Shown in pieces: positions 3,942 through 62,790 of a stretch of 64,000 nt of DNA. The translations under genes and the position numbers were made by a program. Source of the stretch: Candidatus Buchananbacteria bacterium. GTDB taxonomy: Bacteria > Patescibacteriota > Patescibacteriia > 2-01-FULL-39-33. The first letter of the stretch is position 1, and every line of letters starts with the position of its first letter. Where the stretch lies: assembly GCA_041666945.1 (NCBI GenBank), contig JBAYFY010000001.1:182627-246626 (forward strand), written 5' to 3'. The notes under the pieces are model-generated. The model ran no database searches, had not been told where the DNA came from, and worked only from the letters and a program-made list of their open reading frames with translations.

Positions 3942-3981
3942 GAATTAAGATTAATTATCAATTATTAATAATCAATAATTT

Positions 3982-4455
3982 ATGAAACAAAAATTACCCC
4001 TTCCTTTGATGATTCTGGCCGCCGTGGTCGTAATCGTGCTTGTCGGCGCCGCATCCTTTTATGCCGGCACCAAGTATTCTTCAGCCAAGAGATTCAGCTC
4101 GTTTGGCAATGGCAATTTTGGGCCGGGCCAACAGCAAGGCGATGCCGCTGCGGCCGGCCGGAAAATCAATGCCGGCGGGGGAATGATTAACGGCGATATC
4201 CTGTCTTTGGACGAAAAGAATATTACGGTTAAGGGTCGCGACGGCAGTTCCAAAATGGTTTTTTTCGCCACTTCAACGGAAGTGGGCAAGTTCGCCGTCG
4301 GAACCGTTAGTGATTTGGCTGTCGGACAGAATGTCATGGTAACAGGTAAAACCAATAGCGATGGCAGTATTGTCGCCCAGTCGATTCAGATTCGTCCGGC
4401 TGCGGCTAATCCCGATCTTGGCGCGCCCGCTGTTTCTGGCAATCCAGTTAAATAA
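3982..4455 (+). CDS. small secreted/anchored Gly-rich protein of unknown function
   Basis: N-terminal hydrophobic signal/anchor and a Gly/Ala-rich linker. No catalytic motifs. Confidence 0.5.
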   Translation: MKQKLPLPLMILAAVVVIVLVGAASFYAGTKYSSAKRFSSFGNGNFGPGQQQGDAAAAGRKINAGGGMINGDILSLDEKNITVKGRDGSSKMVFFATSTEVGKFAVGTVSDLAVGQNVMVTGKTNSDGSIVAQSIQIRPAAANPDLGAPAVSGNPVK

Positions 4456-4584: not shown

Positions 4585-4830
4585 AAAAGCGTTACTTTTA
4601 TTGGCTAGTGAGCGAGCGAACCAGCGCTTTAAAGCGCTGGATTCCGAGCGAGCGACGCCAATATAGTCAAATACTGCTCGGCTTGCCGAGCTGTTAGTAC
4701 GCAAGTTCCACTATTACCCCGGGGCTTGTCCCGGGGGTTATATTATTAAAGACGAAATTATTATAGCATAAATTTTTGGAATAATCAAGTCGCCAGGCGT
4801 TTTTTTAATTTGCCGTCTTTGTCTGGTTGC

Positions 4831-4893: not shown

Positions 4894-7134
4894 ATGAATC
4901 AAAAGCCGCTTTTGGCGTTGGCATTAAAAGCTGTAATCTGGGCTTGCTTGGGCGTTATTTTTTTCTCCGCCCTGTATGTCAGTTCGTATCTCTTTTTTCC
5001 TTTCATCACCACTAAAAATTTCGCTTTTCAAATCAGCGTAGAAATAATGTTTTTCGCTTTCCTGTTGCTGTGCCTGGTTGACGGTAGATACCGCATCCGG
5101 CTTAATCCCGCCGTGCTTTTGATTCTTCTTTACTTAGTGATTTTAACCGTGGCCTCGGCTTTTTCCGGCAATGATTTTTACCATTCTTTTTGGTCCAACA
5201 ATGAGCGTTGCGACGGCATCCTGCTTTTGTTGCACCTGTCTTTGTTCTGCGTGGTGCTGTCGGGTTTTTTCCGTTCCATTAAAGAATGGCTTTATGTGTT
5301 TGATTTGTTCCTTGTCGCTTCCTTCGCCGTCGCTCTGGTGGCGTTAGACCAATATTTGGCTTTGACTTTCGTCGGTTCCTGGTCGGATCATTTTATGCCG
5401 TCGTCAAACGGCGCGCGTTTGGCCGGCACAATAGGCAACTCCGGCTATGTCGGCGGTTATATGGTGTTTGGAATTTTTACCGCCCTGTTCATGTCTTTAA
5501 AGCGCTCGCAGTGGTGGGCCAAGGCCTGGTATGTCTTAGTGATGCTTTTAGAATTATTTATCGCCGTGCAAACTTTTACTCGCGGCGCTTATCTGGCTTT
5601 ATTGGTCGGAGCGGGCATTTCCGTGCCCTATTTGATGATATTTTATTATCGCAATCGCTACCTGAAAATCGCCGCCGTTTCGCTGATTGTTTTGTTCGTT
5701 TTGTCGTTCGCTTCCATTTTTGTTTTTAAAGATTCTGATTTTGTCAGGCAACAGCCGATTTTAAGCCGCATCTCCTCCATTTCCCTAAAAGACGGCACCG
5801 CCAACAACCGTCTCATCACTTGGGGGCTTGCCTTGCAGGCCGTAGAAGAAAAGCCGTTGTTGGGTTGGGGCCAGGAGAATTTTTATCAGATTTTTGACAA
5901 ATACTACACCACTAAAAACACCGAGCAATGGTTTGACCGTTCGCATAACATGATTTTTGATCGAGCCACTACCGGCGGCATTATCGGCCTGTTGAGTTAT
6001 CTGGCGTTATTGCTCCTGCCTTTTTATTTTATGTGGCGCTATTACTGGGGCGAATATAAAGAGAGGACGGACGACAAAGAGCATTTGGCCAGGCGTTTTC
6101 TTACGCCCGTAATTTTTTCCATTCTAATTCTGGCTTATATCATCCAGAACATGTTTATTTTTGAGGCCCTGGCGATTTATATCCCGCTGATTATGGTTCT
6201 AAGTTTTGTCGGACAGTACGGCCGGGGTTGGAATTTCGCCTTTTTGGACAATTTTAATTTCAAAGCGGGTTTGGCCGTGGTAATGGTTGTTTTATTGGCG
6301 CCCATGCTTTGGATTTTCAATCTTAAGCCGCTTTACGCCAATATAGATTTCATTAAGGCCCTGACTACGCCTTGGCCGACTTTGCAGGACAAAATAAACG
6401 CTTTTGAAGAAGTTATCGGCCGGGGTACTTTTGGCAATCAGGAATATCGCCGGCACTATTTTAATTTTTACGAGCAGACCATAATGGATTATCTCGGCCA
6501 GCAGGAAAATCGTACGGCGGAGAAAGACAAGCAAATGTCCGATTGGTCAAACTTAATGGAAAGCCAATTCCAGGCGCAACTGAAAGAGAACCCTAATAGC
6601 GTTACTAATTGGTTGCTTTTAAACCGTTTTTATAATATTTCCTATTATTTTGACGTGAGACGGCTGCAAAAGGCGACGGATATCGCTGAACAAGCCATCA
6701 GTTTGAGTCCGGGCCGGCCGCAGGGGTATTATGTGGCGGGCATGTCGTATTATTATTTCGGCGCTTATTTTTTAATGAACAAGAATGATGTTGAAGCGGC
6801 AAAATGCTACAAAGAAACCCTGGCATTATTCTGGCGCGGAGCCAATAAGAATGTCAGACCGGGCGAGGGTTTTGACCAGTTCGTTGATTTTATTCTGTCT
6901 TTGCAGAGCAATCCGGCCTCCGCTCCGATTTTCGCCCGACTGTTGGCCGAGGAGCCGATAAATAATTCAACCTCTATAGAGGTGATTAAAGAATTGGCCC
7001 GGTGGTCAAATTTATCCGCCGATCAAGAAATTATGGCGCAAAGGCAGGATAAGCTTAAGAGCATGGCGGCTTGGCTGATAGCTTCCAAGGCGGGCAGTCC
7101 AGAGCTAAGGCAATATTTGGAAACAATCAAGTAA
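4894..7134 (+). CDS. O-antigen ligase/polymerase-like (Wzy_C domain) polytopic membrane protein with C-terminal soluble TPR-like domain
   Basis: About 12 TM helices. Wzy_C-type motif RSHNMIFDRATTGGIIGLLSYLALL. About 250 aa of hydrophilic C-terminus. Confidence 0.65.
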   Translation: MNQKPLLALALKAVIWACLGVIFFSALYVSSYLFFPFITTKNFAFQISVEIMFFAFLLLCLVDGRYRIRLNPAVLLILLYLVILTVASAFSGNDFYHSFWSNNERCDGILLLLHLSLFCVVLSGFFRSIKEWLYVFDLFLVASFAVALVALDQYLALTFVGSWSDHFMPSSNGARLAGTIGNSGYVGGYMVFGIFTALFMSLKRSQWWAKAWYVLVMLLELFIAVQTFTRGAYLALLVGAGISVPYLMIFYYRNRYLKIAAVSLIVLFVLSFASIFVFKDSDFVRQQPILSRISSISLKDGTANNRLITWGLALQAVEEKPLLGWGQENFYQIFDKYYTTKNTEQWFDRSHNMIFDRATTGGIIGLLSYLALLLLPFYFMWRYYWGEYKERTDDKEHLARRFLTPVIFSILILAYIIQNMFIFEALAIYIPLIMVLSFVGQYGRGWNFAFLDNFNFKAGLAVVMVVLLAPMLWIFNLKPLYANIDFIKALTTPWPTLQDKINAFEEVIGRGTFGNQEYRRHYFNFYEQTIMDYLGQQENRTAEKDKQMSDWSNLMESQFQAQLKENPNSVTNWLLLNRFYNISYYFDVRRLQKATDIAEQAISLSPGRPQGYYVAGMSYYYFGAYFLMNKNDVEAAKCYKETLALFWRGANKNVRPGEGFDQFVDFILSLQSNPASAPIFARLLAEEPINNSTSIEVIKELARWSNLSADQEIMAQRQDKLKSMAAWLIASKAGSPELRQYLETIK

Positions 7135-7170
7135 TATAAAAATCCCCGGATAAAATCGGGGATTTTTAGT
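7135..7170. terminator. bidirectional terminator between convergent genes
   Basis: ATAAAAATCCCCGG-ataaaat-CGGGGATTTTTAG. Confidence 0.65.
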
Positions 7171-7188
7171 TAACTGATTTTTTGTTTT

Positions 7189-8359: not shown

Positions 8360-8389
8360 TTGAAATTTATAATCATTTTCTGCTATAAT
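8360..8389 (+). promoter_or_regulatory. strong sigma70-like promoter heading the long + strand gene array
   Basis: TTGAAA (8360-8365), then an 18-nt spacer, then TATAAT (8384-8389). Confidence 0.5.
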
Positions 8390-8423
8390 ATTAAGGTATT
8401 ATTTGACAATTTACAAGACCGCC

Positions 8424-9266
8424 ATGAATAAATTAATCGGTTTTATCGGCCAGGGCTGGATCGGCAAAAATTATGCCGACGATTTTGAAGTTAGGGGCTA
8501 TCAGGTAATCAGATATTCTTTGGAAGAACCGTATCTCGCCAACAAAGAAAAAATCAGCGAGTGTGATATCGTGTTCATTGCCGTGCCTACCCCGACTACC
8601 CGGACGGGGTTTGATGATTCCATTGTCAGAGGCGCCGTGAAGCTGGTCGGCCAAGGCAAGATCGCGGTAATCAAGTCCACGATTCTGCCCGGCACGACAG
8701 AGTCAATCCAAGCGGAAAATCCAAATATTTATTTGTTCCATTCGCCGGAATTTTTGTCTGTTTCCACCGCTTATGACGATTCGCGCCATCCGCAGAGGAA
8801 TATCGTCGGCCTGCCCATAGACAATGAAACATACAAAACCAAAGCCCGAGAGGTGATGTCGGTGTTGCCCCAGGCGGATTTTTCTCTTATTACTTCGGCC
8901 AAAGAAGCGGAATTATTCAAGTATTTGCGGAACTGCTTTTTTTATACCAAAGTCGTTTACATGAACATGCTTTATGATTTGGCCAAGAAGTTAGGTTGCC
9001 GGTGGGAAGTGCTAAGGGAAATCATGTCCAATGATCCCTGGATTGGCAACATGCATATTGATCCGGTGCATAAAAGCGGCCGGGGCGCCGGCGGAGAATG
9101 CTTTATCAAGGATTTAGCCGCACTTAGGCGTTTCTACAAACAGAATTTGAACGATGAAACGGCGGATTGGGTTTTTTCCGCTTTGGAGAAAAAGAATATT
9201 GAGTTGTTGTTAAAAAGCCAGAAAGATTTGGATTTGCTTAAAGGCGTTTATGGCGAGGATATTTAA
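8424..9266 (+). CDS. UDP-glucose/GDP-mannose dehydrogenase family protein, short form lacking the C-terminal UDP-binding domain
   Basis: N-terminal Rossmann motif IGFIGQGWIGKNYA. Catalytic-Cys motif GAGGECFIKD (UGDH GGxCxxKD). The ORF track starts at a TTG at 8403; the ATG at 8424 (MNKLIGF) is more plausible. Only about 280 aa, versus about 390-450 aa for typical UGDH. Confidence 0.6.
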   Translation: MNKLIGFIGQGWIGKNYADDFEVRGYQVIRYSLEEPYLANKEKISECDIVFIAVPTPTTRTGFDDSIVRGAVKLVGQGKIAVIKSTILPGTTESIQAENPNIYLFHSPEFLSVSTAYDDSRHPQRNIVGLPIDNETYKTKAREVMSVLPQADFSLITSAKEAELFKYLRNCFFYTKVVYMNMLYDLAKKLGCRWEVLREIMSNDPWIGNMHIDPVHKSGRGAGGECFIKDLAALRRFYKQNLNDETADWVFSALEKKNIELLLKSQKDLDLLKGVYGEDI

Positions 9267-9282
9267 GAGATAGTTTGTTATC

Positions 9283-9310
9283 TAACCTGTTACGTAGCAT
9301 GCTACGTAAC
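9283..9310. repeat. perfect 22-bp palindrome GTTACGTAGCATGCTACGTAAC, preceded by CCTGTTACGTA (minimal member of the same GTAACAGG element family)
   Basis: CCTGTTACGTA is the exact reverse complement of the TACGTAACAGG 11-mer found at 62712-62722. Confidence 0.6.
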
Positions 9311-9320
9311 AATTTATCGC

Positions 9321-10547
9321 ATGCCTGCGGAAAACAAAAAAAGAATTCTGATTTTTTCTTTGGCTTACCATCCTTTTGTGGGCGGAGCCGAAGTGGCCAT
9401 TAAAGAAATCACCGAGCGGCTGGGTGAAGATTTTGAATTTGACATGATTACGGCTAACTTGAGCGGCCATGAGCCGAAGGAAATTGAGAATTTTAACGGC
9501 ATCAGCCGGGTTTACCGTTTAGGCGCCGGAAAATTTGACAAGTATCGTTTTCCTTGGCTGGCGTACAACAAAGCGTTGGAGTTGCAGCAGAAAAACGATT
9601 ATGACGCGGTTTGGGCGATGATGGCCAATCAGGCGGGCTTGGCCGCCTTGAAATTCAAGCGTCGTTTTCCGCAGATTCCTTATTTATTGACTTTGCAAGA
9701 AGGGGACAGCGAACTGAATATCTGGCTGCGCACTTGGTTTATCCGGCCGATTTACAAGGCGATTTACCGCCGCGCCGATTATATTCAGGCGATCAGCAAT
9801 TTTTTGGCCAAGCGCGCCAAGCGTTTAGGCGCGAAATGTCCGATTGAAGTGGTGCCGAATGGCGGTGTTATCGAATTAAATTTAGTAGATTTAAAAGATT
9901 ACAGCAAACAAAAAAATAATGCCGAATTTGTTGCTGAATTTGATTCCACTATTGTGAAAGAAATAGAACAGATAAATAAAAATTTGAAAAAAGGTGATAA
10001 TTTAATCATAACTACTTCGCGATTAGTCAAGAAAAACGGAATAGTGTATTTAATACAGGCAATGAAATTTTTACCAAATAACTTTAAGTTAAGAATTATT
10101 GGTGACGGGAAGTTAAAATTAAAATTAAAAAAAACAGTTAAAAAATTAAATTTGAAAGATAGAGTTGAATTTATTGGTCAAATTGATTTTAGAAAATTGT
10201 ATAAATATTATTGGTATAAACCAATAATATTTGTCCGCCCGTCATTGTCGGAAGGATTGGGTAATGTTTTTTTGGAAGCGATGTCAATGAGTATTCCTGT
10301 AATTGGTACTAAAGTTGGTGGCATTCCTGATTTTTTGGTTGACGGCGAAACCGGCTGGTTCTGCAAAGTTAAAAATCCCGAAAGCATCGCGGAAAAAATC
10401 AATTACATTTTGTCTGAAAAAAATAAAGCCGAAGTTGAAAGAGTGGTTGAAAATGCCCAAAAATTAGTAGCCGAAAAGTATAATTGGAATAAAATAGCCG
10501 GCGAGATGAAAAATATTTTCAATAAATTGGCAAATGGACAAGAATAA
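9321..10547 (+). CDS. glycosyltransferase family 4, with an AT-rich mosaic C-terminal domain
   Basis: GT4 C-terminal domain motif EGLGNVFLEAMSMSIPVIGTKVGGIPDFLVDGETG. The segment from about 9860 to 10330 has sharply lower GC than its flanks. Confidence 0.8.
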   Translation: MPAENKKRILIFSLAYHPFVGGAEVAIKEITERLGEDFEFDMITANLSGHEPKEIENFNGISRVYRLGAGKFDKYRFPWLAYNKALELQQKNDYDAVWAMMANQAGLAALKFKRRFPQIPYLLTLQEGDSELNIWLRTWFIRPIYKAIYRRADYIQAISNFLAKRAKRLGAKCPIEVVPNGGVIELNLVDLKDYSKQKNNAEFVAEFDSTIVKEIEQINKNLKKGDNLIITTSRLVKKNGIVYLIQAMKFLPNNFKLRIIGDGKLKLKLKKTVKKLNLKDRVEFIGQIDFRKLYKYYWYKPIIFVRPSLSEGLGNVFLEAMSMSIPVIGTKVGGIPDFLVDGETGWFCKVKNPESIAEKINYILSEKNKAEVERVVENAQKLVAEKYNWNKIAGEMKNIFNKLANGQE

Positions 10548-51782: not shown

Positions 51783-51809
51783 TTGACTTAATTTAATTTA
51801 TGTTATAAT
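51783..51809 (+). promoter_or_regulatory. sigma70-like promoter for the GtrA/UXS/GT2 array
   Basis: TTGACT (51783-51788), then a 15-nt spacer, then TATAAT (51804-51809); about 28 nt upstream of the 51837 start. Confidence 0.45.
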
Positions 51810-52265: not shown

Positions 52266-52338
52266 TTGTTCGGTAAGGGCAAATCATGTTATAATTTATG
52301 TATGAACTAAATATCCATTTAAGGAATAAATTAAATCT

Positions 52339-53383: not shown

Positions 53384-54046
53384 ATGAAATTGGCGATAAT
53401 TATCCCGGCTTACAATGAAGCGGAAAAAATAAGCTCTGTTGTTTTAGCGGTCAAAGCCGCTCAGCCCGAATCCTTGATTATAGTTGTGGATGACGGTTCC
53501 GGCGATGCGACGGCTGAACTGGCCGCTTCGGCCGGCGCTGATGTTTTACGGCATAAAATCAACCGCGGGCAGGGAGCGGCGCTTAAGACCGGCGTAGAAT
53601 ACGCTTTTCGCCGCTACATTGACGCGGCTGTTTTTTTTGACGCGGACGGGCAGATGGAGCCGTCGGAGATTAAATTGCTGGCAGCCGAACTGTCCCAAGG
53701 TTATGATGTGGTGCTGGGTTCCAGAAATTTGGGCCGCGCCCTGAATATGCCGCTGGCTAAAAAAATCGCCAAGAAATTAGCTTTGTATTTCACCCGCTTT
53801 ACCACTGGTTTGAAATTGACTGATACGCACAACGGTTTTCAGGCCTGGACCAGCGGATCGTTAAAACGCTTGAATTTAGGTCAAGATCGTCAGGCCTATG
53901 CCAGCGAGGTGTTGCACGAAATTAAGCGCCTTAAGTTAAAATACTGCGAGGTGCCGGTGACGATTCGTTATACCGGCTATTCCATAAAAAAGGGCCAAAG
54001 CATCTGGAATGCGTTTGGGATTTTGTGGGACCTGTTAATAAAGTAA
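53384..54046 (+). CDS. GT2 polyprenyl-phosphate sugar synthase (DPM1-like)
   Basis: AIIIPAYNE, VVDDGSGDAT, DADGQ. Confidence 0.8.
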   Translation: MKLAIIIPAYNEAEKISSVVLAVKAAQPESLIIVVDDGSGDATAELAASAGADVLRHKINRGQGAALKTGVEYAFRRYIDAAVFFDADGQMEPSEIKLLAAELSQGYDVVLGSRNLGRALNMPLAKKIAKKLALYFTRFTTGLKLTDTHNGFQAWTSGSLKRLNLGQDRQAYASEVLHEIKRLKLKYCEVPVTIRYTGYSIKKGQSIWNAFGILWDLLIK

Positions 54047-54100
54047 CAGGTAATAAGTAACAAGTAATTTTTAATAATTTATTACATATTACGTATTACT
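54043..54100. repeat. inverted heptamer-array element (GTAAYAN)x3 ... (NTRTTAC)x3, copy 1
   Basis: AAGTAACAGGTAATAAGTAACAAGTAA, then tttttaataat, then TTATTACATATTACGTATTAC; immediately after the GT2 stop codon. Confidence 0.6.
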
Positions 54101-54113
54101 ATTTATAAACAAT

Positions 54114-54449
54114 ATGCTTATACAAATCATCCTGCTTATTATTATCGCCGTTATTGTTTTACGCTTAGCGGTTAAATACCGCGCCAAGGAATTGCCCGGC
54201 AAGCAATTCATCAGTTGGCTTGTTTTTTGGCTGGCGGCTTCCGCGGCCGTGATTTGGCCCCAGTTGACAGTTAATATTGCCAATCGCGTGGGTGTGGGTC
54301 GCGGTTCTGACTTGGTAGTTTACTTGGCCTTGATATTTTTGTTTTATATCCTCTTCCGCTTGTTTTTGCGCATTGAGAAACTGGAGAAAAACTTGACTAA
54401 AGTCGCCCGGGCTGAAGCCCTAAAAGAAAAAAATGATTCAACCGAATAA
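54114..54449 (+). CDS. DUF2304-like small membrane protein
   Basis: 111 aa, three TMs plus a C-terminal amphipathic helix. Commonly paired with GT2 genes. Confidence 0.55.
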   Translation: MLIQIILLIIIAVIVLRLAVKYRAKELPGKQFISWLVFWLAASAAVIWPQLTVNIANRVGVGRGSDLVVYLALIFLFYILFRLFLRIEKLEKNLTKVARAEALKEKNDSTE

Positions 54450-55485
54450 AAAGATCGTCATTGGCATCGTAACTTATAATTCCCGCCATAAAATCGCCGA
54501 TTGCCTTAACAGCGTTAATCGGCAGAATTATCCGCGCGAATTGGTGCAGGTGGCGGTAGTTGATAACAACAGCAATGACTCAACTAAAGATTATTTGGCT
54601 GAAGCTTGGCCGCAAGTGACGGTTATTGCCAATAACAATAATACCGGTTTTGCCGCGGCCAATAATCAGATCTATGCCTTCGCCAAAGGCCAAGCCGATT
54701 ATCTGGTCCTGCTTAATGATGACACGATAGTAGAGCCCAATTGGCTGACACGACTGGTTAACGCCGCCTTAAGCGATGATAAAATTGCCGCCGTTCAGTC
54801 AAAATTATTGCTTTATCCGGAAAAGAATTTGGTCAATAGCTTGGGCAACTCCATCCAGTTTTTGGGTTTCGCTTTTTGCAATCACTATCGCGAGCCCGAT
54901 AATCATGATTACACCGCCTTGTTTGATTTGCCTTACGCTTCCGGCGCCGCCGTGTTGTTAAAACTTTCAGCGCTTGAAGAAATTGGTTTATTTGATGAAA
55001 AATTATTCATGTATCACGAAGACGTGGACTTGGGCTGGCGCTTGCGGCTTTTGGGTTACCGCGCGGTCATTGATCCGCTCTCCGTCGTTTATCACAAATA
55101 TAACTATTCCAAAGCCAAGTACAAGTTCTACTACATGGATCGCAATCGCTGGATCGTCCTGCTGAAGAACTACCGCTTAGCGACTATTATATTATTAGCG
55201 CCCATGCTATTGATAATGGAATTCGGCATTACGCTTTATTCTATTAAAAACGGCTGGTTTAAGGAAAAACTTAAGGGCTGGGCCTGGCTGATAAAAAATC
55301 TCGGCTATGTTTTGAGCGAACGGAAGAAAATTCAAGGCCTGCGGCAAACATCCGACCGTAAAATTTTGAATTTGTTTGTCGGTTCAATCACCAATCAGGA
55401 AGTGGAAAATAAATTATTGTCTTGGATAGCCAATCCTCTAATGGAGATTTATTTTCTTTTAATCCGCTTGGTTGTTTTTTGGTAA
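54433..55485 (+). CDS. glycosyltransferase family 2
   Basis: VIGIVTYNS, VAVVDNNSNDST, LNDD; C-terminal membrane-associated tail. Confidence 0.8.
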   Translation: MIQPNKKIVIGIVTYNSRHKIADCLNSVNRQNYPRELVQVAVVDNNSNDSTKDYLAEAWPQVTVIANNNNTGFAAANNQIYAFAKGQADYLVLLNDDTIVEPNWLTRLVNAALSDDKIAAVQSKLLLYPEKNLVNSLGNSIQFLGFAFCNHYREPDNHDYTALFDLPYASGAAVLLKLSALEEIGLFDEKLFMYHEDVDLGWRLRLLGYRAVIDPLSVVYHKYNYSKAKYKFYYMDRNRWIVLLKNYRLATIILLAPMLLIMEFGITLYSIKNGWFKEKLKGWAWLIKNLGYVLSERKKIQGLRQTSDRKILNLFVGSITNQEVENKLLSWIANPLMEIYFLLIRLVVFW

Positions 55486-55633
55486 CGGCCGGACTTGATT
55501 TTTTTTTAATTTTACATTATAATTCACCCTGTTAAATGCGCTAAAGCGCAATTCGCTTTGGGCGAGTTATTTAACGGGTTAACAAAATTCACGGTATTTT
55601 ATTCAAATATCGTGATTTAGGAAGGGACAAAAT

Positions 55634-56413
55634 ATGGATCAAATTACGCAACCGATCAAAAGAATGGGGGCCGGCAAGATTGCCGTTTACATTGTTTTGA
55701 TCTTGGCACTTTCTGCCGTCGCCATTATTTCCATTGTGCGCGATCGCATTGTCAACTACCCGCAGAATTCGGTTTCCGTCACCGGCCAAGGCAAAGTCAC
55801 TTATCAGCCGGACATCGCCATTATCACCTTGGGCGTACAAATTGACAAGGTGGCCAAACCGGATGAAGCTCTCAATCAGTTGAATGATAAAATCACCAAG
55901 ATTGTTGCGGCGATTAAGGCCTTGGGCATAGCGACGGAAGATATTGTCACGCAGAGTTATTCCCTGTATCCGCAATATGATTATGTCAATAACGTCAGCA
56001 GCTTATCCGGCTATAGCGCCAATCAGCAGATTACCGTCAAAGCGCGGGATATCAAAGTTAGTCCGGATAAAACCAGCAAGGTGATTGCCGAAGCCAGTAA
56101 GGCCGGCGCCAATCAGGTTTTGGGAATTTCTTTTGACGTTTCCAATTTAGATGATCTTAAGCAGCAAGCCAGGGTTGAGGCCTTGGGCGACGCCAATAAT
56201 AAAGCGATCAAAATGGCTTCGGCGGCTGAAGTGAAGTTGGGAGAGATTACCGGCTGGTGGGAGAATTATCTCCAGGGTCCGGGGCAGTCGCAGAATTATT
56301 ACGGTGGCAGCGATAAGGGCGGCCTGGGCGGCGGCGGCAGTGTCAGCGCCACAATTCCGACCGGCAGTTATGAGATTGTTATGGAGATGAATGTAAATTA
56401 TAAATTAAAATAA
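55634..56413 (+). CDS. SIMPL-domain (DUF541/BP26-like) secreted protein
   Basis: N-terminal TM/signal; SVSVTGQGKVTYQPDIAIITLGVQ; C-terminal Gly-rich region. Good SD GGAAGGG. Confidence 0.65.
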   Translation: MDQITQPIKRMGAGKIAVYIVLILALSAVAIISIVRDRIVNYPQNSVSVTGQGKVTYQPDIAIITLGVQIDKVAKPDEALNQLNDKITKIVAAIKALGIATEDIVTQSYSLYPQYDYVNNVSSLSGYSANQQITVKARDIKVSPDKTSKVIAEASKAGANQVLGISFDVSNLDDLKQQARVEALGDANNKAIKMASAAEVKLGEITGWWENYLQGPGQSQNYYGGSDKGGLGGGGSVSATIPTGSYEIVMEMNVNYKLK

Positions 56414-56420
56414 ATTCCTC

Positions 56421-56446
56421 GGGGGCTGTTACCAAACAGCCCCTTT
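56421..56446 (+). terminator. intrinsic terminator hairpin
   Basis: GGGGGCTGTT-acc-AAACAGCCCC, then TTT. Confidence 0.5.
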
Positions 56447-56448
56447 AA

Positions 56449-56519
56449 GGGCCTATAGTCTAGTGGTACGACGCTACATTCGCATTGTAGAGGCGGCGGT
56501 TCGATTCCGCCTAGGTCCA
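56449..56519 (+). tRNA. tRNA-Ala (anticodon CGC)
   Basis: Cloverleaf GGGCCTA/TAGGTCC with the G3:U70 Ala identity pair. Anticodon loop TTCGCAT; T-loop TTCGATT. Confidence 0.8.
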
Positions 56520-56570
56520 CTGCTTCGCTAAAGCTACGCAGTGCAGGTATTTTAAAAGATTAATTTAAAT

Positions 56571-56647
<77 letters not shown>

Positions 56648-56654
56648 TTTATTT

Positions 56655-57398
56655 ATGTCTAATCTTATTTGGGCGTTGCTGGCGGTCGCGTTAATCAGCG
56701 TTATGTCTTTTTCCGGCGCCTTGGCTCTGATATTAAACGATCACCGGCTCAAAAATTTTTTGATTTATTTCGTGTCTTTCGCGGCCGGATCAATGATGGG
56801 CGCGGCCTTTTTTCATTTATTGCCCGAGGTTTTGAACTCTATCCCGCCGCTGGAAGCGTTTATTGCCGTACTCGTCGGCTTTTCCCTCTTTTTTATTTTG
56901 GAAAGATTCCTGCGTTGGCATCATTGCCATGAAGAGTCCTGCGAAACCCACGACCATTTGGGCTGGCTTAATTTGATCGGCGACGGCTTCCATAACATGA
57001 TTGACGGCATGATTATTTTTGCCTCTTTTTTAGGCGGTCCGGTTCTGGGCATACCGGTAACTTTGTCCATAATCCTTCACGAAATTCCGCAGGAATTGGG
57101 TGATTTCGGGGTTTTATTGTATTCCGGATTCACCAAAAAACGCGCTTTGTTTTATAATTTGCTTTCCGCCTGCGCGGCTTTTATCGGCGTTTTGCTGGGC
57201 TGGATGTTTTATCGGCAAAGCGAAATGCTTTTTTCTTTGCTCCTGCCTTTTGCCGCCGGCGGGTTTATTTACATCGCCGCCTCGGATTTGATCCCCGAGT
57301 TGCATAAAGACAGGAATTTGACTCGCGCTGTTTTTTCTTACATTTTGTTTATTTTAGCTTTAGCGTTTATGTATTTGATGAAAATATTGTTTGAATAA
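56655..57398 (+). CDS. ZIP family metal (Zn/Fe) transporter
   Basis: 8 TMs; HEIPQELGDFGVLL ZIP signature; His-rich loop HHCHEESCETHDH. Confidence 0.85.
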   Translation: MSNLIWALLAVALISVMSFSGALALILNDHRLKNFLIYFVSFAAGSMMGAAFFHLLPEVLNSIPPLEAFIAVLVGFSLFFILERFLRWHHCHEESCETHDHLGWLNLIGDGFHNMIDGMIIFASFLGGPVLGIPVTLSIILHEIPQELGDFGVLLYSGFTKKRALFYNLLSACAAFIGVLLGWMFYRQSEMLFSLLLPFAAGGFIYIAASDLIPELHKDRNLTRAVFSYILFILALAFMYLMKILFE

Positions 57399-57643
57399 CC
57401 CTCCTGTCATCCTCTTGAATAATCCCCACTGTCATCCTCTTGAATAATCCCCACTGTCATCCTCGCGGAGGCGAGGATCCAAGAGGTTAAAATTATATAA
57501 TAATGGATTCCCGCCTACGCGGGAATGACGGATAAAAAATTGAAACAGCAGGAACAATGCGGAGGCGAGGATCCAAGAGGTTAAAATTATATAATAATGG
57601 ATTCCCGCCTACGCGGGAATGACGGATAAAAAATTGAAACAGT
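57389..57643. repeat. composite repeat cluster: about 2.5 tandem copies of a 25-bp unit, then two identical 84-bp direct repeats separated by 10 bp
   Basis: Two perfect copies of the 25-bp unit CTGTCATCCTCTTGAATAATCCCCA (57404-57428 and 57429-57453); a degenerate half-copy in the ZIP 3' end (57389-57403) and a partial copy at 57454-57464. 84-bp unit GCGGAGGCGAGGATCC...ATTGAAACAG at 57465-57548 and 57559-57642, 100% identical. Internal palindromes ATCCTCGC-gga-GGCGAGGAT and TTCCCGC-ctac-GCGGGAA. Confidence 0.85.
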
Positions 57644-57901
57644 AATACTCGATCGGAATGGCAATAAAAAGGATGCTCAAGCTGGGCATGACTTATAATT
57701 ATTACTATCTGTTTTGTCTATTAAATATAAAAATTATCTAAAATTATATAAAAAGTGATAATCGCTAATTATAAAAATAGATAAATCTATTGACAAAATA
57801 TTTAAGGTATGATATGACATTCACAGCACGTTACATTGGCAGGCCTTAGGCCGGGGACTATTTCTCTGGTAGGAGGTAAGCCGCAATATGGGAGAAAAAC
57901 C

Positions 57902-58600
57902 ATGAAAAAGAGTGAGTTCTTGAGCGCGTTGGGTGTTATGTGGGAAATTTGGAAGTCGCTGACGGATGAAATTTTGTCTTTAGGCGGCGACGATGAGGCG
58001 ATCCGCCTCATTAAGACGGATGACGGTCTGCGGCGGAGAATCGCCGAATTGGTGATGGCTAAAGCGCGTGGCGTCAAGGTTGCCGCCAAGCAAATTGGCG
58101 CTGATATGTCCGCCGGCAGCTACGATGTAATCGTTGACTTTAGCCAGAATCTTGAGCAGATGATCGCCGCCGGTCGCTATAATAGAGCGAGCTCGGACAT
58201 CAACGCCAATAATTTTTCGCTAAACGGAGCGGGTAAACGTAGAGTCAAAGTGGAATTGCTCCACTTTAATCAGAGTTTAGAAAATGGTGACCAAATCTTC
58301 GCCAAACTAAAAGAAGTCAATGATTGGCTGGCGCAACAAGGAGTGAAGTATCGCTACCGTTTTGCCCAAATAGAAGAGCTTCTGGCTCTGGGCGCGACTC
58401 AACCCGAGTTGCAACGGCAACTCCTGATTGCTGCTTTGGGTTCAATTTGGCACCATTATGGCAACCGCGACTTCGTTTGCCTTGGCGGGAATATTATAGA
58501 GCGCCACCTGCTCTTGGGTTCTCTTAAGGGTCGCTTCTCCGGTGACTACTGGCGGTTCGCTGTTGTCCGCGAGGTTTTTGATGACACCTTGAAACCTTGA
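57902..58600 (+). CDS. hypothetical protein, paralog A of a duplicated pair
   Basis: Shares a C-terminal module with 58631..59248 (SDINA..F..NG.GK, ELLALGA.QPELQRQ.LIAALGSIW, YWRFAVVR). The ORF track starts at 57836; MKKSEF at 57902 is more plausible. Confidence 0.45.
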   Translation: MKKSEFLSALGVMWEIWKSLTDEILSLGGDDEAIRLIKTDDGLRRRIAELVMAKARGVKVAAKQIGADMSAGSYDVIVDFSQNLEQMIAAGRYNRASSDINANNFSLNGAGKRRVKVELLHFNQSLENGDQIFAKLKEVNDWLAQQGVKYRYRFAQIEELLALGATQPELQRQLLIAALGSIWHHYGNRDFVCLGGNIIERHLLLGSLKGRFSGDYWRFAVVREVFDDTLKP

Positions 58601-58630
58601 ATCAGAAAAAATCGGGAAAAGGAGAATAGC

Positions 58631-59248
58631 ATGAAAACTGCAAGTAAAACTGGAAATAGAAATAAGAAAGTCGGAACCGGGATTATCACCGCTATTACCG
58701 TCGCAGTTGTAAGCCAAGGCGGAAAAGCCGAGGACTTGACTGCGGTTGTCGGGCACAATGAGTTGCTCAAGCAATTAGCCGCGGCCGTCATTGAGCTTTC
58801 CCGTAAGATCATCCAACTCGTCATTGACTATCGTATGACTTTGGCGCAGATGATCATCGCTGGCAAGTATGACCGGGTGAATTCGGACATCAACGCCGAA
58901 CATTTCCCGATCAATGGGAAGGGCAAGAAGGCGGTCGACATTGAACTCTGGCATCCGAACAGATATTTTAAAAACGGCGACGAAGTGATTGCCGAGCTGA
59001 AAAAGTCCAAATATGGTTATCGTTTCGCCACCCTGCCGGAACTTTTGGCTCTGGGCGCGGCTCAACCCGAGTTGCAACGGCAATTCCTGATTGCCGCTTT
59101 GGGTTCAATTTGGCGCCGCACCGGCTACCGCCGTTTCGCCTACCTCCACGGGTCTGACGCTATGCGCGACCTGGACCTGGGCTTTCTCGGGGGTGCTTTC
59201 CACGGCTATTGGCGCTTTGCGGTTGTCCGCGATCCTGCCTGCCGGTAG
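58631..59248 (+). CDS. hypothetical protein, paralog B of the duplicated pair
   Basis: SD AAGGAGA 7 nt upstream. N-terminal TM. Conserved C-terminal module as in paralog A. Confidence 0.5.
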   Translation: MKTASKTGNRNKKVGTGIITAITVAVVSQGGKAEDLTAVVGHNELLKQLAAAVIELSRKIIQLVIDYRMTLAQMIIAGKYDRVNSDINAEHFPINGKGKKAVDIELWHPNRYFKNGDEVIAELKKSKYGYRFATLPELLALGAAQPELQRQFLIAALGSIWRRTGYRRFAYLHGSDAMRDLDLGFLGGAFHGYWRFAVVRDPACR

Positions 59249-59285
59249 GTAAGTAATTTTGATTAGACATTGACCTCTGAATTTT

Positions 59286-59318
59286 CCGCGCGATAACCCT
59301 TATCGCGCGGCTTTTATT
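59286..59318 (+). terminator. intrinsic terminator
   Basis: CCGCGCGATAA-ccc-TTATCGCGCGG, then CTTTTATTT. Confidence 0.65.
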
Positions 59319-59486
59319 TGATAAAGCTCATAAAAAATTGGCACGGAATTGGAAAGTATGTTATACTGTATATATTGCGGGGTTAATTGCCCGGCCAAAA
59401 TAGATTGGCAGGTATGATACTGGTGAAATTTCAATAAATTTACTTATTAAATCAATTTTTATAAATTTTTATTTAACAGGGTAAAT

Positions 59487-60422
59487 ATGAAAAAAATTAT
59501 TTCTAAAATTTCCGACTGGTGCAAGAATGTTTGCGCCAAGCGCGAGGGGCAAAGCAATTTTAAACGCGGCCTGATAATCGGCCTGATCGTTGCCGTAATC
59601 ATTATTATCATTTTAGTATTGGTTTTATGGCTATCCGGCGTTTGGGACGGCAAAAAAGACGATTCTCAGCCGGCTAATCCCGTCGCCGAAGCCAAAGTAA
59701 TCATTTTGACTTCCACTCATTGCGGCAACAAATGCTGGGATACTGATTTGTTCATAGACGCCCTAAAAAGCAGGAGCATAAAAATCACCGATACGGAAAC
59801 GCTTAAGGTTGACGGTTGGTGGCCTTGGAGTAAAGGCAAGGCCTTGGCTAAAAAACTGCAGGTAACCAAAGTCCCGACGGTCATAGTGGAAGCCGATTTT
59901 AGCAAAAATCCAGATTTGGCGGCTTTTTTCACCAGCACTTTAGGCAACACGGTGGATAACCAGTTTGTCTTAACTAAAATCCTGGCACCCTATTATGATT
60001 TGGCTCTAAAAAAACTTAAGGGCGAAATTTTGATTACTTACTTGACCGACGCTTCATGCAAAACCTGCTATGACGTCAAGACCCATGAAACGGCTTTGAA
60101 GAATTTGGGCATGCCGACCAACCGATCCAAAACCGTGGACATTTCCTCATCTGCCGGCAAGGCCTTGATTGATAAGTATAAGATCACTAAAGCCCCGACA
60201 GTCATAATTAGCGGCGAAGTCAGCGAGTACCCGGTGTTTATTCAGGCCTGGGTTGACGTGGGAACTGTTACCGGCGATGGCGTTTATATTTTTACCAATC
60301 TGGATTTGATGGGTGATTATAAGGATTTGACTACCGGCCAAGAGGTGAAAGCGGACGCCGCCAAGGCCTCCGGTTCGCAGACAACGCAAACCACGGCAGC
60401 CGCCAAAACAACAACCAAATAA
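59487..60422 (+). CDS. membrane-anchored protein with two tandem thioredoxin-fold-like domains and Thr/Ala-rich C-terminal tail
   Basis: N-terminal signal anchor. Domain 1 has CGNKC ... TKVPTVIV; domain 2 has CKTC ... TKAPTVII (CxxC-type motif plus cis-Pro loop). Tail QTTQTTAAAKTTTK. Confidence 0.5.
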   Translation: MKKIISKISDWCKNVCAKREGQSNFKRGLIIGLIVAVIIIIILVLVLWLSGVWDGKKDDSQPANPVAEAKVIILTSTHCGNKCWDTDLFIDALKSRSIKITDTETLKVDGWWPWSKGKALAKKLQVTKVPTVIVEADFSKNPDLAAFFTSTLGNTVDNQFVLTKILAPYYDLALKKLKGEILITYLTDASCKTCYDVKTHETALKNLGMPTNRSKTVDISSSAGKALIDKYKITKAPTVIISGEVSEYPVFIQAWVDVGTVTGDGVYIFTNLDLMGDYKDLTTGQEVKADAAKASGSQTTQTTAAAKTTTK

Positions 60423-60434
60423 TTTGTAAAAGCT

Positions 60435-60465
60435 TCAACCTCGCTAAAGCGAGGTTGATTTTTTT
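60435..60465 (+). terminator. intrinsic terminator
   Basis: TCAACCTCGC-taaa-GCGAGGTTGA, then TTTTTTT. Confidence 0.75.
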
Positions 60466-60497
60466 CGGTTAAAATGTTATATTTTAATCATCCGATT

Positions 60498-61187
60498 ATG
60501 AAGTTATACATCGTGGCTACGCCGCTGGGCAATCTAAAAGATATCACTTTGCGGGCGTTGGAAGTCCTAAGATCAGCGCCTTTAATCGCCTGCGAAGACA
60601 CCCGCGTTTCCGGCAAATTGTTAGCGGCTTACAATATTAAAACCCCGACCGTTTCTTATCACCAGCACAGTTCTTCGGGCAAGGTGGATTTTTTGTTGAA
60701 TAAACTGGCTGAAGCGGGGGAGATGGCAATTATCACCGATGCCGGCACGCCGGGCATTTCCGATCCCGGGAATTTGTTAGTGGAAGCGGCGGTTAAAAAG
60801 TTTGGCTTAAAGTGCGAAATTATACCCATTCCCGGGCCTTCAGCCATTATCGCGCTGCTATCAATTTCCGGCTTGCCGACCGACCGATTTTTGTTTTTGG
60901 GTTTTTTGCCTCATAAAAAAGGCAAAGAAACCATGCTGAAACGAATTATAGACAGCGAAGAAACCGTTGTTTTTTACGAGTCCACCCATCGGATTATCAA
61001 GTCCCTGGAAAAGTTAGGGGAGTTGATGTCTTTGGGGGCGAATAATGACAGACGAATCGTGGTCGGCCGCGAGCTGACGAAAAAATTTGAAACCGTCCAT
61101 CGCGGCAATATTAAGCAAATTTTAGAGCAATTAAAATCCGATACCGCTAAGGGTGAATTTGTCGTGGTGGTGGAAGGAAAGAAATAA
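60498..61187 (+). CDS. rsmI: 16S rRNA (cytidine1402-2'-O)-methyltransferase RsmI (tetrapyrrole-methylase fold)
   Basis: MKLYIVATPLGNLKDITLRALEVL...ACEDTR matches the RsmI N-terminus. Start taken at the ATG at 60498. Confidence 0.85.
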   Translation: MKLYIVATPLGNLKDITLRALEVLRSAPLIACEDTRVSGKLLAAYNIKTPTVSYHQHSSSGKVDFLLNKLAEAGEMAIITDAGTPGISDPGNLLVEAAVKKFGLKCEIIPIPGPSAIIALLSISGLPTDRFLFLGFLPHKKGKETMLKRIIDSEETVVFYESTHRIIKSLEKLGELMSLGANNDRRIVVGRELTKKFETVHRGNIKQILEQLKSDTAKGEFVVVVEGKK

Positions 61188-61188
61188 T

Positions 61189-62694
61189 ATGTCCAAGTTT
61201 TATATTACAACGCCAATTTATTATTCCAACGCCGAACCGCACATCGGTTCGGCTTATCCGACGATTGCCGCCGATGTTTTGGCTCGCTATCACCGCTTGC
61301 GCGGCGAAGAAGTGCGCTATCTGACCGGAGTGGATGAACACGGCCAGAAGATGTCCGATTCGGCCGCGGCCGCGAATAAATCGCCGCAGGAATTTTGCGA
61401 TGAAATGGCGGCCAAATGGCAATTCGCCTGGGACGCGCTTGATATCTCTAATGATGATTTTATCCGCACCACTTCCAATCGCCATAAGGACGGCGTGGCC
61501 AAGTTGCTATTGAAATTAAAGGAAGCCGGGGCGGTTTACGAAGGCAAATATGAGGGTTATTATTGCAAAGGTTGCGAGGCCTTTGTGACGGAAAAGGACT
61601 TGATTGACGGCAAATGCCCGGTGCATCAAACCAAGCCGGAATTGATTGAAGAAAAAAATTATTTTTTTAATCTGAAAAAATATCTGCCGGAAGTGGAGCG
61701 GCTGATTGATACGGATAAAATCAGAATTTTGCCGGCCAGCAAAAAGAAAGAAGTGCTGGGGTTGTTCAAACAAGAATTATCTGATTTTTCCATTTCCCGC
61801 CAAAATCTCAAATGGGGCATACCTCTGCCCTGGGATCCGACCCAGGTTGCTTACGTCTGGGCCGATGCTTTAAGCAATTACATTAACGCTTTGGGATATG
61901 GCTCCGATGATGAGACAATGTTAAACAAATTCTGGCCGGCCGACGTGCACGTCATCGGCAAGGATATTATCAAATTCCACTGTATTTTTTGGCCGGCCAT
62001 GCTTTTGGCTGCGGAAATACAGCCGCCCCAGACCGTTTTTGCCCATGGATTTTTTACGGTTGACGGCCAGAAAATGGGCAAATCACTGGGTAACATCATT
62101 GACCCGCTGGAGTTAGTAAAAGGATTTGGCGCCGATGCCGTCAGATATTTGTTATTGTCGCAATTTCCGTTCGGCCAAGACGGGGATATCAAAGCGGAAA
62201 AATTCGTTACCCAATATAATTCCGATTTAGCCAACGGCATCGGTAATTTTTCTTCCCGCGTAACCGCCATGGCCGAGAAATATTTTAACGGCTCGGTGCC
62301 CGGCAATCGCGACAGCGAATTAAAGGCGGAAACGGAAAAGATTATCGGCCAGTATGACCAGGCCATGGCTGATTTCTTGCCTGACGGAGGCATTGAAGCG
62401 GTCAAGGCGCTGGTTGCCTTAGGCGACGCTTATGTGGAAAAAAACAAGCCCTGGGAATTGGCCAAGTCCGATACCAAAAGATTGGAAGAAGTGATTTATA
62501 ATCTGTTGGAATTATTGCGCCATGTCGGTGTTTTGCTCTGGCCCGTGATGCCTGAAACCGCCGGTAAAATCCTGTCATCCTTGGGCCAGGATAAGTTTAC
62601 CGGCCAGGATTACAAAAACTTGATCGTCTGGGGGCTACTGGAACCGCAGGGCAAGGTAGAAAAGATTTCCGGCTTATTCCCTAGAATTCAATAA
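61189..62694 (+). CDS. metG: methionine--tRNA ligase, short form without C-terminal tRNA-binding extension
   Basis: HIGH motif PHIGSAY. KMSKS motif QKMGKSLGN. Zinc knuckle CKGCEAF...CPVHQ. Starts 1 nt after the rsmI stop. Confidence 0.9.
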   Translation: MSKFYITTPIYYSNAEPHIGSAYPTIAADVLARYHRLRGEEVRYLTGVDEHGQKMSDSAAAANKSPQEFCDEMAAKWQFAWDALDISNDDFIRTTSNRHKDGVAKLLLKLKEAGAVYEGKYEGYYCKGCEAFVTEKDLIDGKCPVHQTKPELIEEKNYFFNLKKYLPEVERLIDTDKIRILPASKKKEVLGLFKQELSDFSISRQNLKWGIPLPWDPTQVAYVWADALSNYINALGYGSDDETMLNKFWPADVHVIGKDIIKFHCIFWPAMLLAAEIQPPQTVFAHGFFTVDGQKMGKSLGNIIDPLELVKGFGADAVRYLLLSQFPFGQDGDIKAEKFVTQYNSDLANGIGNFSSRVTAMAEKYFNGSVPGNRDSELKAETEKIIGQYDQAMADFLPDGGIEAVKALVALGDAYVEKNKPWELAKSDTKRLEEVIYNLLELLRHVGVLLWPVMPETAGKILSSLGQDKFTGQDYKNLIVWGLLEPQGKVEKISGLFPRIQ

Positions 62695-62696
62695 AA

Positions 62697-62790
62697 AAGT
62701 AATAAGTAATACGTAACAGGTAACAAGTAAATAAATAGCTATAATAAAAAATTGCTTTTTACTTTTTACTTATTACATATTACGGTTATC
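62697..62790. repeat. inverted heptamer-array element, copy 2 (contains TACGTAACAGG core)
   Basis: GTAATAAGTAATACGTAACAGGTAACAAGTAA, then an AT-rich spacer containing TATAAT, then TTACTTTTTACTTATTACATATTAC; between metG and cvpA. Confidence 0.6.

Follow-up and report, generated by a model that had tools for sequence, protein, structure and literature searches.

Convergent GTAA heptamer arrays in two intergenic spacers of a Candidatus Buchananbacteria genome, compared with known intergenic heptameric repeats

Here we describe two arrays of inverted GTAAYAN heptamers, called site 2 and site 3, in a 64,000-nucleotide (nt) stretch of DNA (the window) from Candidatus Buchananbacteria bacterium (Patescibacteriota; assembly GCA_041666945.1, contig JBAYFY010000001.1, positions 182,627 to 246,626), and compare them with heptameric repeats described in other bacteria. 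Xanthomonas (unit GGGAATC) and Nostoc (unit GGGGAYT) carry intergenic 7-nt repeats that usually run to about four copies (Rehm et al. 2015, PLoS One, PMC4692102). In Xanthomonas, 89 to 93% of the repeats are intergenic, mostly between same-strand genes, with the purine-rich strand in the sense orientation and the array within about 50 bp of a stop codon or overlapping it (PMC4692102). There are 70 to 75 convergent opposite-strand pairs per Xanthomonas genome, capable of forming stem-loops; the heptamers differ in length and sequence between close species, and transcripts start or stop at them more often than at control repeats (PMC4692102). TAACTGA heptamers in marine Beggiatoaceae, cyanobacteria, and Bacteroidetes are likewise intergenic and orientation-specific, occur in sets of 2 to 6 copies, and have been proposed to act posttranscriptionally (MacGregor 2015, PMC4679880). 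More generally, no class of long simple-sequence repeats is more abundant in prokaryotes than heptanucleotides, for which polymerase slippage has been put forward as the cause (Mrazek 2007, as cited in PMC4679880).

Two other systems with 7-nt units invite comparison. For the omega repressor of plasmid pSM19035, the binding sites are 7-bp WATCACW heptads that adjoin one another. Short tandemly repeated repetitive sequences (STRRs) form both arms of the extended P12 helix in the RNase P RNA of heterocyst-forming cyanobacteria. Cyanobacterial STRRs are heptanucleotides, reportedly described by Mazel in 1990 and by Vioque in 1997.

In the window, site 2 lies between a GT2 glycosyltransferase gene (53384-54046) and a DUF2304 gene, within a glycosyltransferase cluster, and site 3 lies between metG and cvpA. 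Their parts are as follows.

54043-54070, + strand: site 2 left arm, four tandem heptamers GTAACAG GTAATAA GTAACAA GTAATTT
54071-54078: site 2 AT-rich centre, the hairpin loop, 8 nt
54079-54099, - strand: site 2 right arm, three inverted heptamers, minus-strand reading GTAATAC GTAATAT GTAATAA
62699-62733, + strand: site 3 left arm, five tandem heptamers GTAATAA GTAATAC GTAACAG GTAACAA GTAAATA
62734-62755, + strand: site 3 centre, the hairpin loop, 22 nt, carrying GCTATAAT at 62738-62745
62756-62783, - strand: site 3 right arm, four inverted heptamers, minus-strand reading GTAATAT GTAATAA GTAAAAA GTAAAAA

Each array fills the spacer between two same-strand genes, from stop codon to next start codon, with the purine-rich arm first, then an AT-rich middle, then the pyrimidine-rich (U-rich) arm. 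Site 2 spans 57 bp (54043-54099); its first heptad contains the TAA stop (54044-54046) of the GT2 gene, its last left-arm heptad and centre together read AAGTAATTTTT, and its right arm ends 14 nt before the DUF2304 start codon (54114). Site 3 spans 85 bp (62699-62783). It begins 4 nt downstream of the metG stop codon (62692-62694), and its right arm, U-rich on the + strand, ends 15 nt before the cvpA start codon (62799). An earlier note, made from the letters of this DNA alone, had described inverted GTAAYAN arrays after stop codons at both places, which the coordinates and the shuffles described next bear out; it had given the largest array as four plus three heptamers, and we count five plus four in site 3.

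The arrays are far from what chance would produce. Period-7 GTAA runs of at least three units occur four times in the window and not once in 200 dinucleotide-preserving shuffles, and the three-heptad pattern is matched six times where 0.00 matches are expected. Tandem Repeats Finder (TRF) calls period 7 at 54036-54068, 54080-54103, 62697-62730, and 62755-62776, with 73 to 93% matches. All arrays are intergenic, in a window where genes are densely packed, mainly on the + strand, and intergenic DNA makes up 3,286 of 64,000 bases (5.1%). Across the 16 heptads of the two sites, positions 1 to 4 are invariant and position 6 nearly so (14/16), and substitutions are free at positions 5 and 7. As a 7-nt period does not divide into whole codons, the arrays place TAA stops in all three frames of each strand. 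We extended the scan to 83 kb, consisting of the window plus 10 kb upstream and 9 kb downstream, and found no further GTAA heptad arrays in the flanks, which leaves two loci in the 83 kb. Taken with the comparisons below, sites 2 and 3 very probably represent a lineage-specific, degenerate instance of the known intergenic heptameric repeats, in convergent inverted configuration.

The sites share with the Xanthomonas and Nostoc repeats the 7-nt unit, the intergenic place, the stop-proximal layout, and the variability between species. As in the Xanthomonas pairs, the two arms of each site converge and are built from the same unit. The gap between them is 8 nt in site 2 and 22 nt in site 3, and the array begins 4 nt after the stop codon in site 3 and, in site 2, 3 nt before that codon ends. 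In contrast to Xanthomonas, the Buchananbacteria unit is AT-rich and degenerate, with a single G per unit and hence no G-quadruplex, and there are 2 loci in 83 kb rather than about 180 per genome. Like STRRs, sites 2 and 3 are tandem heptanucleotides in noncoding DNA, with at least three head-to-tail 7-nt copies beyond chance and none in relatives, and the GTAAYAN matches that we list from other genomes are mostly cyanobacterial. However, STRRs (CCCCAGT, TTGGTCA, CAACAGT) are longer, single direct arrays with the near-perfect units expected of recent slippage, whereas sites 2 and 3 are degenerate and occur in very few copies in a small-genome host of the Candidate Phyla Radiation (CPR). With TAACTGA they have in common stop-codon content, intergenic place, strict orientation, short sets, and a scattered phylogeny, but TAACTGA repeats are direct, forward-oriented repeats a few nt upstream of starts, with one inverted case and hundreds of loci per genome. 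The pSM19035 omega operators resemble the sites in having adjacent 7-bp units, both direct and inverted, around promoters. They differ in that the arrays here are unconserved and have no known cognate protein, and in that other lineages show a similar layout built from unrelated units.

A metagenome scan with the methionyl-tRNA synthetase (MetRS) returned 33 loci of relatives (41 to 93% identity, 328 kb in total), and no GTAA heptad array was found in those 328 kb. The metG-cvpA spacer is 10 to 27 bp long and array-free in loci L229 (89% MetRS identity), L243, L236, and L231, the MetRS identities of relatives with array-free spacers being 89%, 73%, and 70%, and the site 3 array of about 90 bp stands out in the alignment as a clean insertion. 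The GT2-DUF2304 spacer is array-free in the same four loci; in L231 the gene gap is just 7 bp, and in L229 the spacer holds a longer, unrelated sequence that, by eye, looks period-7 (roughly AWCAATT). In most sampled relatives, both junctions measure 7 to 27 bp and are operon-like. The array-free sister spacers imply that the arrays are recent insertions into operon-like junctions, and the absence at both junctions in all sampled relatives implies that they arose after the split from the nearest sampled sister. The protein collection has no relative closer than 89%, its CvpA cluster at 90% identity having a single member. Judged from these sequence comparisons, sites 2 and 3 are young and lineage-specific.

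Some traces at the junctions may speak to how the arrays began. The AAGTAATTTTT of site 2 equals the stop-codon context of L231 and L243, and the innermost left heptad and centre of site 3, AGTAAATA...AGCTAT, resemble the TAGTAAATA...AGCTAT of L229. Among periods 5 to 11, period 7 is the commonest in the relatives, in a census that is an undercount, as the strict lag-7 detector overlooks degenerate arrays. Elsewhere in the same genome, AT-rich period-7/14 arrays occupy spacers at window 3950-3996 (ATTAATT/ATCAATT) and L001 7177-7207 (TAATTCG, 3.7 copies), directly upstream of the DUF5666 and HIT starts. A distant CPR locus, L247 (48% MetRS identity), has an independent inverted array at 1915-2000, GAATTAC-type and then GTAATTC-type, which fills the post-metG spacer and folds at -25.4 kcal/mol (z -6.4). 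The period-7 arrays elsewhere in the genome, the L229 stretch, and the L247 array all fit with birth and turnover driven by slippage. A different repeat-like insert, GTCATTGCGAGG...GCGACCGTGGCAATC, sits at the GT2-DUF2304 junction in L236 (about 400-500) and after metG in L234 (3270-3339). The GT2-DUF2304 and post-metG spacers appear to be hotspots for small insertions.

GTAAYAN arrays are also found well beyond this lineage. For the four-heptad pattern, about 0.5 chance matches are expected in the genome collection (under uniform base composition), and we found at least 120 genomic stretches and 104 viral contigs. The counts that follow refer to the matches listed, which sample the taxa rather than count them in full. 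Cyanobacteria dominate, joined by Bacteroidota, Chloroflexota, spirochaetes, Endomicrobia, Acidobacteriota, and another CPR genome, and the majority of the matches are single, near-perfect direct arrays. The inverted pairs are all convergent, with the purine-rich GTAA arm first (19 convergent, 0 divergent), the orientation that sites 2 and 3 also have. Seventeen of these 19 lie within 30 bp of a gene 3' end; five of the 19 are between convergent genes and two between divergent genes. A motif-independent scan gave the same orientation, as 13/13 inverted period-7 pairs have the purine-rich arm first. Four GTAAYAN pairs from other phyla form long, nearly perfect hairpins (z -6.2 to -10.2). Near 3' ends, single arrays with GTAA in the sense orientation outnumber the others 46 to 8 among genomes, 43 to 11 among viral contigs, and 89 to 19 overall, a bias that is partly forced by TAA stops in all frames.

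Further observations concern individual stretches among these matches. All 25 GTAAYAN arrays inside long reading frames (L005-L228) run antisense to the frame. In Nostoc sp. CHAB 5836 (L094 1123-1212, 2172-2240, and 7904-7987) and in Endomicrobia (L033 695-780 and 1594-1677), convergent inverted arrays follow successive genes within a few kb. Alternative pairings are suggested in L033, where the centre is complementary to a GC-rich segment immediately 5' of the left arm.

As RNA, both sites fold into AU-rich hairpins whose paired runs are interrupted by a single mismatch about every seventh base; site 3 folds at -20.7 kcal/mol (z -4.0) and site 2 at -11.7 kcal/mol (z -2.1). The folding prediction called for in the note thus does yield hairpins at both sites, but not of the canonical terminator shape: neither site combines a GC-rich stem of 5 to 14 bp and a loop of 3 to 8 nt with an immediate U-tract, and the tail in the folds reads GGUUAUCAU. 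A consensus terminator scan of the window called neither site and found GC-rich terminators at 59286-59310 and 60435-60458; a hairpin with a flanking A-run and T-run lies at 7130-7175. The TATAAT that the note had seen upstream of cvpA is present in the site 3 loop at 62740-62745. The extended -10 sequence TGnTATAAT has five copies in the window, of which four lie between genes where operons start. Copies at 8381-8389, 51801-51809, and 52287-52295 (+ strand) and at 4760-4768 (- strand) are associated with operon starts and a tRNA-Glu gene, and the one at 8381 is conserved in L264 and L265. TGnTATAAT appears to be the promoter signature of this genome. The GCTATAAT in the site 3 loop, a near match, is a putative cvpA promoter, which is plausible but unproven.

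It is tempting to read the two sites as slippage-born hairpin pairs that act between genes as weak attenuators or as RNA processing or stability hairpins, and we think this reading has about an even chance of being right. Replication slippage, 7 nt at a time, would have built the arrays up on the spot out of the native stop-codon context (AAGTAA-T...), and an inverted duplication by template switching would have supplied the second arm. The flanking genes of each array look cotranscribed, so read-through RNA would fold into the AU-rich hairpin, with TAA stops from the arrays in all six reading frames. The hairpin would then serve as a weak, leaky attenuator or a processing or stability element rather than a strong terminator, and at site 3 the GCTATAAT in the loop may restart transcription for cvpA. 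In favor of a role at the RNA level are the orientation, strict across phyla, the short distance to stop codons, and the transcript data from Xanthomonas. Several considerations weigh on the other side. We infer every functional step of this mechanism, and the nonconservation of the arrays fits with no function at all. Their operon-internal position speaks against this mechanism, the hairpins are weak, with a large loop in site 3 (22 nt) and no U-tract after the stem, and the fold of the minus-strand RNA of the arrays is a little more favorable than that of the sense RNA, a point against selection on the sense transcript. As for origin, growth in place relies on similarities of 8 to 11 nt in AT-rich DNA, which are weak evidence; simple recent slippage predicts identical units, while the position-specific variation seen here also fits a sequence-specific binding protein. 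The arrays are also identical in the European Nucleotide Archive (ENA) and Logan assemblies, possibly of the same sample, which makes for a weak test of polymorphism and lends nothing to copy-number dynamics.

The main rival to the hairpin reading is that the arrays are neutral by-products of slippage and template switching in dispensable spacers, with their orientation set by the mode of birth or by frame-cutting TAA. We consider this possible, yet clearly less probable than an RNA-level role. Much agrees with it: the arrays are absent at the same junctions in all relatives, the period-7-looking stretch (by eye) at GT2-DUF2304 in L229 suggests rapid turnover, this genome has other period-7 arrays in its spacers, the hairpins of sites 2 and 3 are weak and mismatched, and the bias toward gene 3' ends is partly forced, as GTAA arrays stop every frame. 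However, neutral processes at the DNA level explain poorly why, among the matches listed, 19 pairs are convergent and none divergent, and why 13/13 pairs in unrelated phyla are purine-first; nor do they readily account for substitutions limited to heptad positions 5 and 7, and rarely 6, or for the enrichment of Xanthomonas transcript starts and stops at heptamer repeats relative to controls (PMC4692102). A different view gives the arrays a strong function, as lineage-specific, efficient intrinsic (Rho-independent) terminators, possibly bidirectional. This terminator family was the leading idea of the note, and we find it improbable. The arrays do come directly after stops, site 3 has a U-rich 3' arm with two CUUUUUAC units, the pairs in other phyla adjoin gene 3' ends, including those of convergent genes, and a purine-rich 5' arm with a U-rich 3' arm is the orientation that termination needs. 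Yet the consensus scan flags 59286 and 60435, ordinary GC-rich terminators, and never the arrays, whose AU-rich stems are mismatched every seven bases and whose full hairpin has no trailing U-tract. A strong stop in junctions that are operon-like (7 to 27 bp in most relatives) would also silence DUF2304-GT2 and cvpA, and the arrays are not conserved.

More improbable still is that the arrays are operators or iteron-like sites, at which a putative protein would bind GTAAYA cores cooperatively and control an embedded or downstream promoter. The geometry of adjacent heptads in both orientations is compatible with such binding, as the note had supposed in speaking of iteron-like protein-binding sites; a G-T-A-A-n-A core (positions 1 to 4 invariant, 6 nearly so, 5 and 7 variable) runs through all 16 heptads, and the arms of site 3 enclose a -10-like box. 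The evidence gathered does not favor it, however. The same layout occurs elsewhere with unrelated units (GGGAATC in Xanthomonas, GAATTAC in L247), a sign of a cause that does not depend on sequence. No candidate for the binding protein came to light, and with just two loci in 83 kb and none in relatives, such a protein would have to be equally young. Least probable of all, and in our view very unlikely, is a miniature mobile element, resembling MITEs (miniature inverted-repeat transposable elements) or REPs (repetitive extragenic palindromes), or a phase-variable contingency repeat whose copy number would switch the cvpA and surface-polysaccharide genes downstream, in the manner of the 7-bp repeats upstream of Haemophilus hmw1A. 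Compared with relatives, both arrays are insertions, site 2 is within a glycosyltransferase cluster, and heptanucleotide phase variation is documented (PMC8262952). The miniature repeat elements of the note nonetheless find no echo here, since the two copies (57 and 85 bp) differ in length and centre, no further copies occur in the 83 kb, and no signature of terminal repeats and target duplication was seen by eye, with no systematic search made. As to phase variation, heterogeneous units suppress slippage, whereas phase-variable repeats are perfect, and the arrays do not vary between the ENA and Logan assemblies, which may stem from one sample. A broader proposal would be that convergent purine-first arrays are widespread "punctuation" modules that arise anew in many phyla and insulate neighboring genes in both directions by termination or processing; slippage in stop-codon contexts would seed the arrays, hairpins would follow, and the loop would sometimes carry a promoter, as at site 3. 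We regard this as doubtful, if somewhat less so than efficient termination.

The note had grouped a third place, site 1, with sites 2 and 3 into one family with the core TACGTAACAGG. Site 1 lies between a UDP-glucose/GDP-mannose dehydrogenase-like gene (8403-9266) and a GT4 glycosyltransferase gene (9321-10547).

9274-9286, + strand: degenerate third box TTTGTTATCTAAC, intact in L264 (TTTGCTACGTAAC) and nearly intact in L268
9288-9311, + strand: perfect 24-bp palindrome of two 12-bp boxes, TGTTACGTAGCA and TGCTACGTAACA
L264 2426-2470, L265 2466-2495, and L268 1454-1495: counterparts of window 9274-9311

No period-7 heptamer array is present at site 1. Its box consensus is TGYTACGTARCA, and relatives carry two or three alternating boxes of 12 to 13 bp. 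Four other genomes (L264, L265-L267, L268/L269), whose GT4 proteins are just 62 to 68% identical, have the element at this junction too, and it folds in all four. Between the window and L268, about 100 bp around site 1 are some 90% identical, though the GT4 proteins are just 62% identical. Site 1 is missing in L270-L272, where the dehydrogenase-like gene is not immediately upstream of the GT4 gene, and GYTACGTARC was found nowhere else in 445 kb of the clade. The 10-bp stem is preserved in 4/4 aligned sequences; five changes affect one side of a pair, each giving a G-U wobble, and no double compensatory change occurs among the four. An apparent swap of the arms between the window and L264, which would have been a compensatory change, was set aside; the alignment shows a three-box array in which differing adjacent boxes are intact.

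The link between site 1 and the arrays had been an 11-mer, TACGTAACAGG, said to recur as its exact reverse complement. The match exists, at 62710-62720 and 9286-9296 rather than at 62712 and 9285, but it is within chance. Random 96-nt segments of the window share at least one 11-mer with the rest of the window in 99.8% of cases (mean 13 matches), so the shared 11-mer carries no weight. TACGTA has five copies in the window, four of them inside sites 1 to 3, and in the arrays it is the junction of a C-ending heptad with the next GTAA (GTAATAC followed by GTAA). We accordingly reject grouping by TACGTA or TACGTAACAGG, the one being a junction by-product and the other an instance of commonplace 11-mer sharing. 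What decides against the three-member family is that site 1, which has no heptads, is conserved at its own junction, unlike sites 2 and 3. Site 1 is thus a separate, conserved, locus-specific element, with a possible role as a stem-loop or operator.

The dehydrogenase-like frame upstream of site 1 is short, at 283 to 289 amino acids (aa) and without the C-terminal domain, in the window (8403-9266), L264, L265, and L268. Truncation of the 287-aa frame by site 1 was considered and dropped, as the short form is conserved in synteny. From that conservation across several CPR genomes, the frame is taken to be a genuine short form and not a pseudogene.

Other features of the window provide the setting. 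Its GC content is about 44%, and exact protein matches were found to its CvpA and Wzy-like proteins (MFA6593840.1 and MFA6593791.1). The ENA assembly ERZ27249449 and the Logan assembly SRR6484324 are identical to the window save for one mismatch, at 59013. An Rfam search of the window at gathering scores returned three tRNAs, and E-value searches around sites 1, 2, and 3 returned chance, sub-threshold matches alone. A GC-rich, REP-like hairpin family, GTCATTCCCGCGAAGGCGGGAATCC and variants, occurs at window 57391-57642 and at L001 6850-7000 and about 13800. In the spacer at 57.4 to 57.8 kb, these hairpins sit in a 25-bp repeat (3 copies) and a 94-bp repeat (1.9 copies), and the family recurs in two other spacers of the same genome.

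In all, sites 2 and 3 are a real but ordinary local feature, probably of little consequence for the two flanking operons. If the punctuation proposal were true, the Buchananbacteria arrays would be freshly born, imperfect examples caught in the act of splitting former operons. More broadly, the known intergenic heptameric repeats, especially the convergent stop-proximal pairs of Xanthomonas, are now extended to a small CPR genome. The sisters, with short array-free spacers or, at GT2-DUF2304 in L229, a longer unrelated one, provide a before-and-after comparison. The orientation rule (19 convergent against 0 divergent pairs among the matches listed, and 13/13 purine-first) suggests that the repeats are not purely neutral, and its strictness makes the function of heptamers testable by 3'-end mapping.

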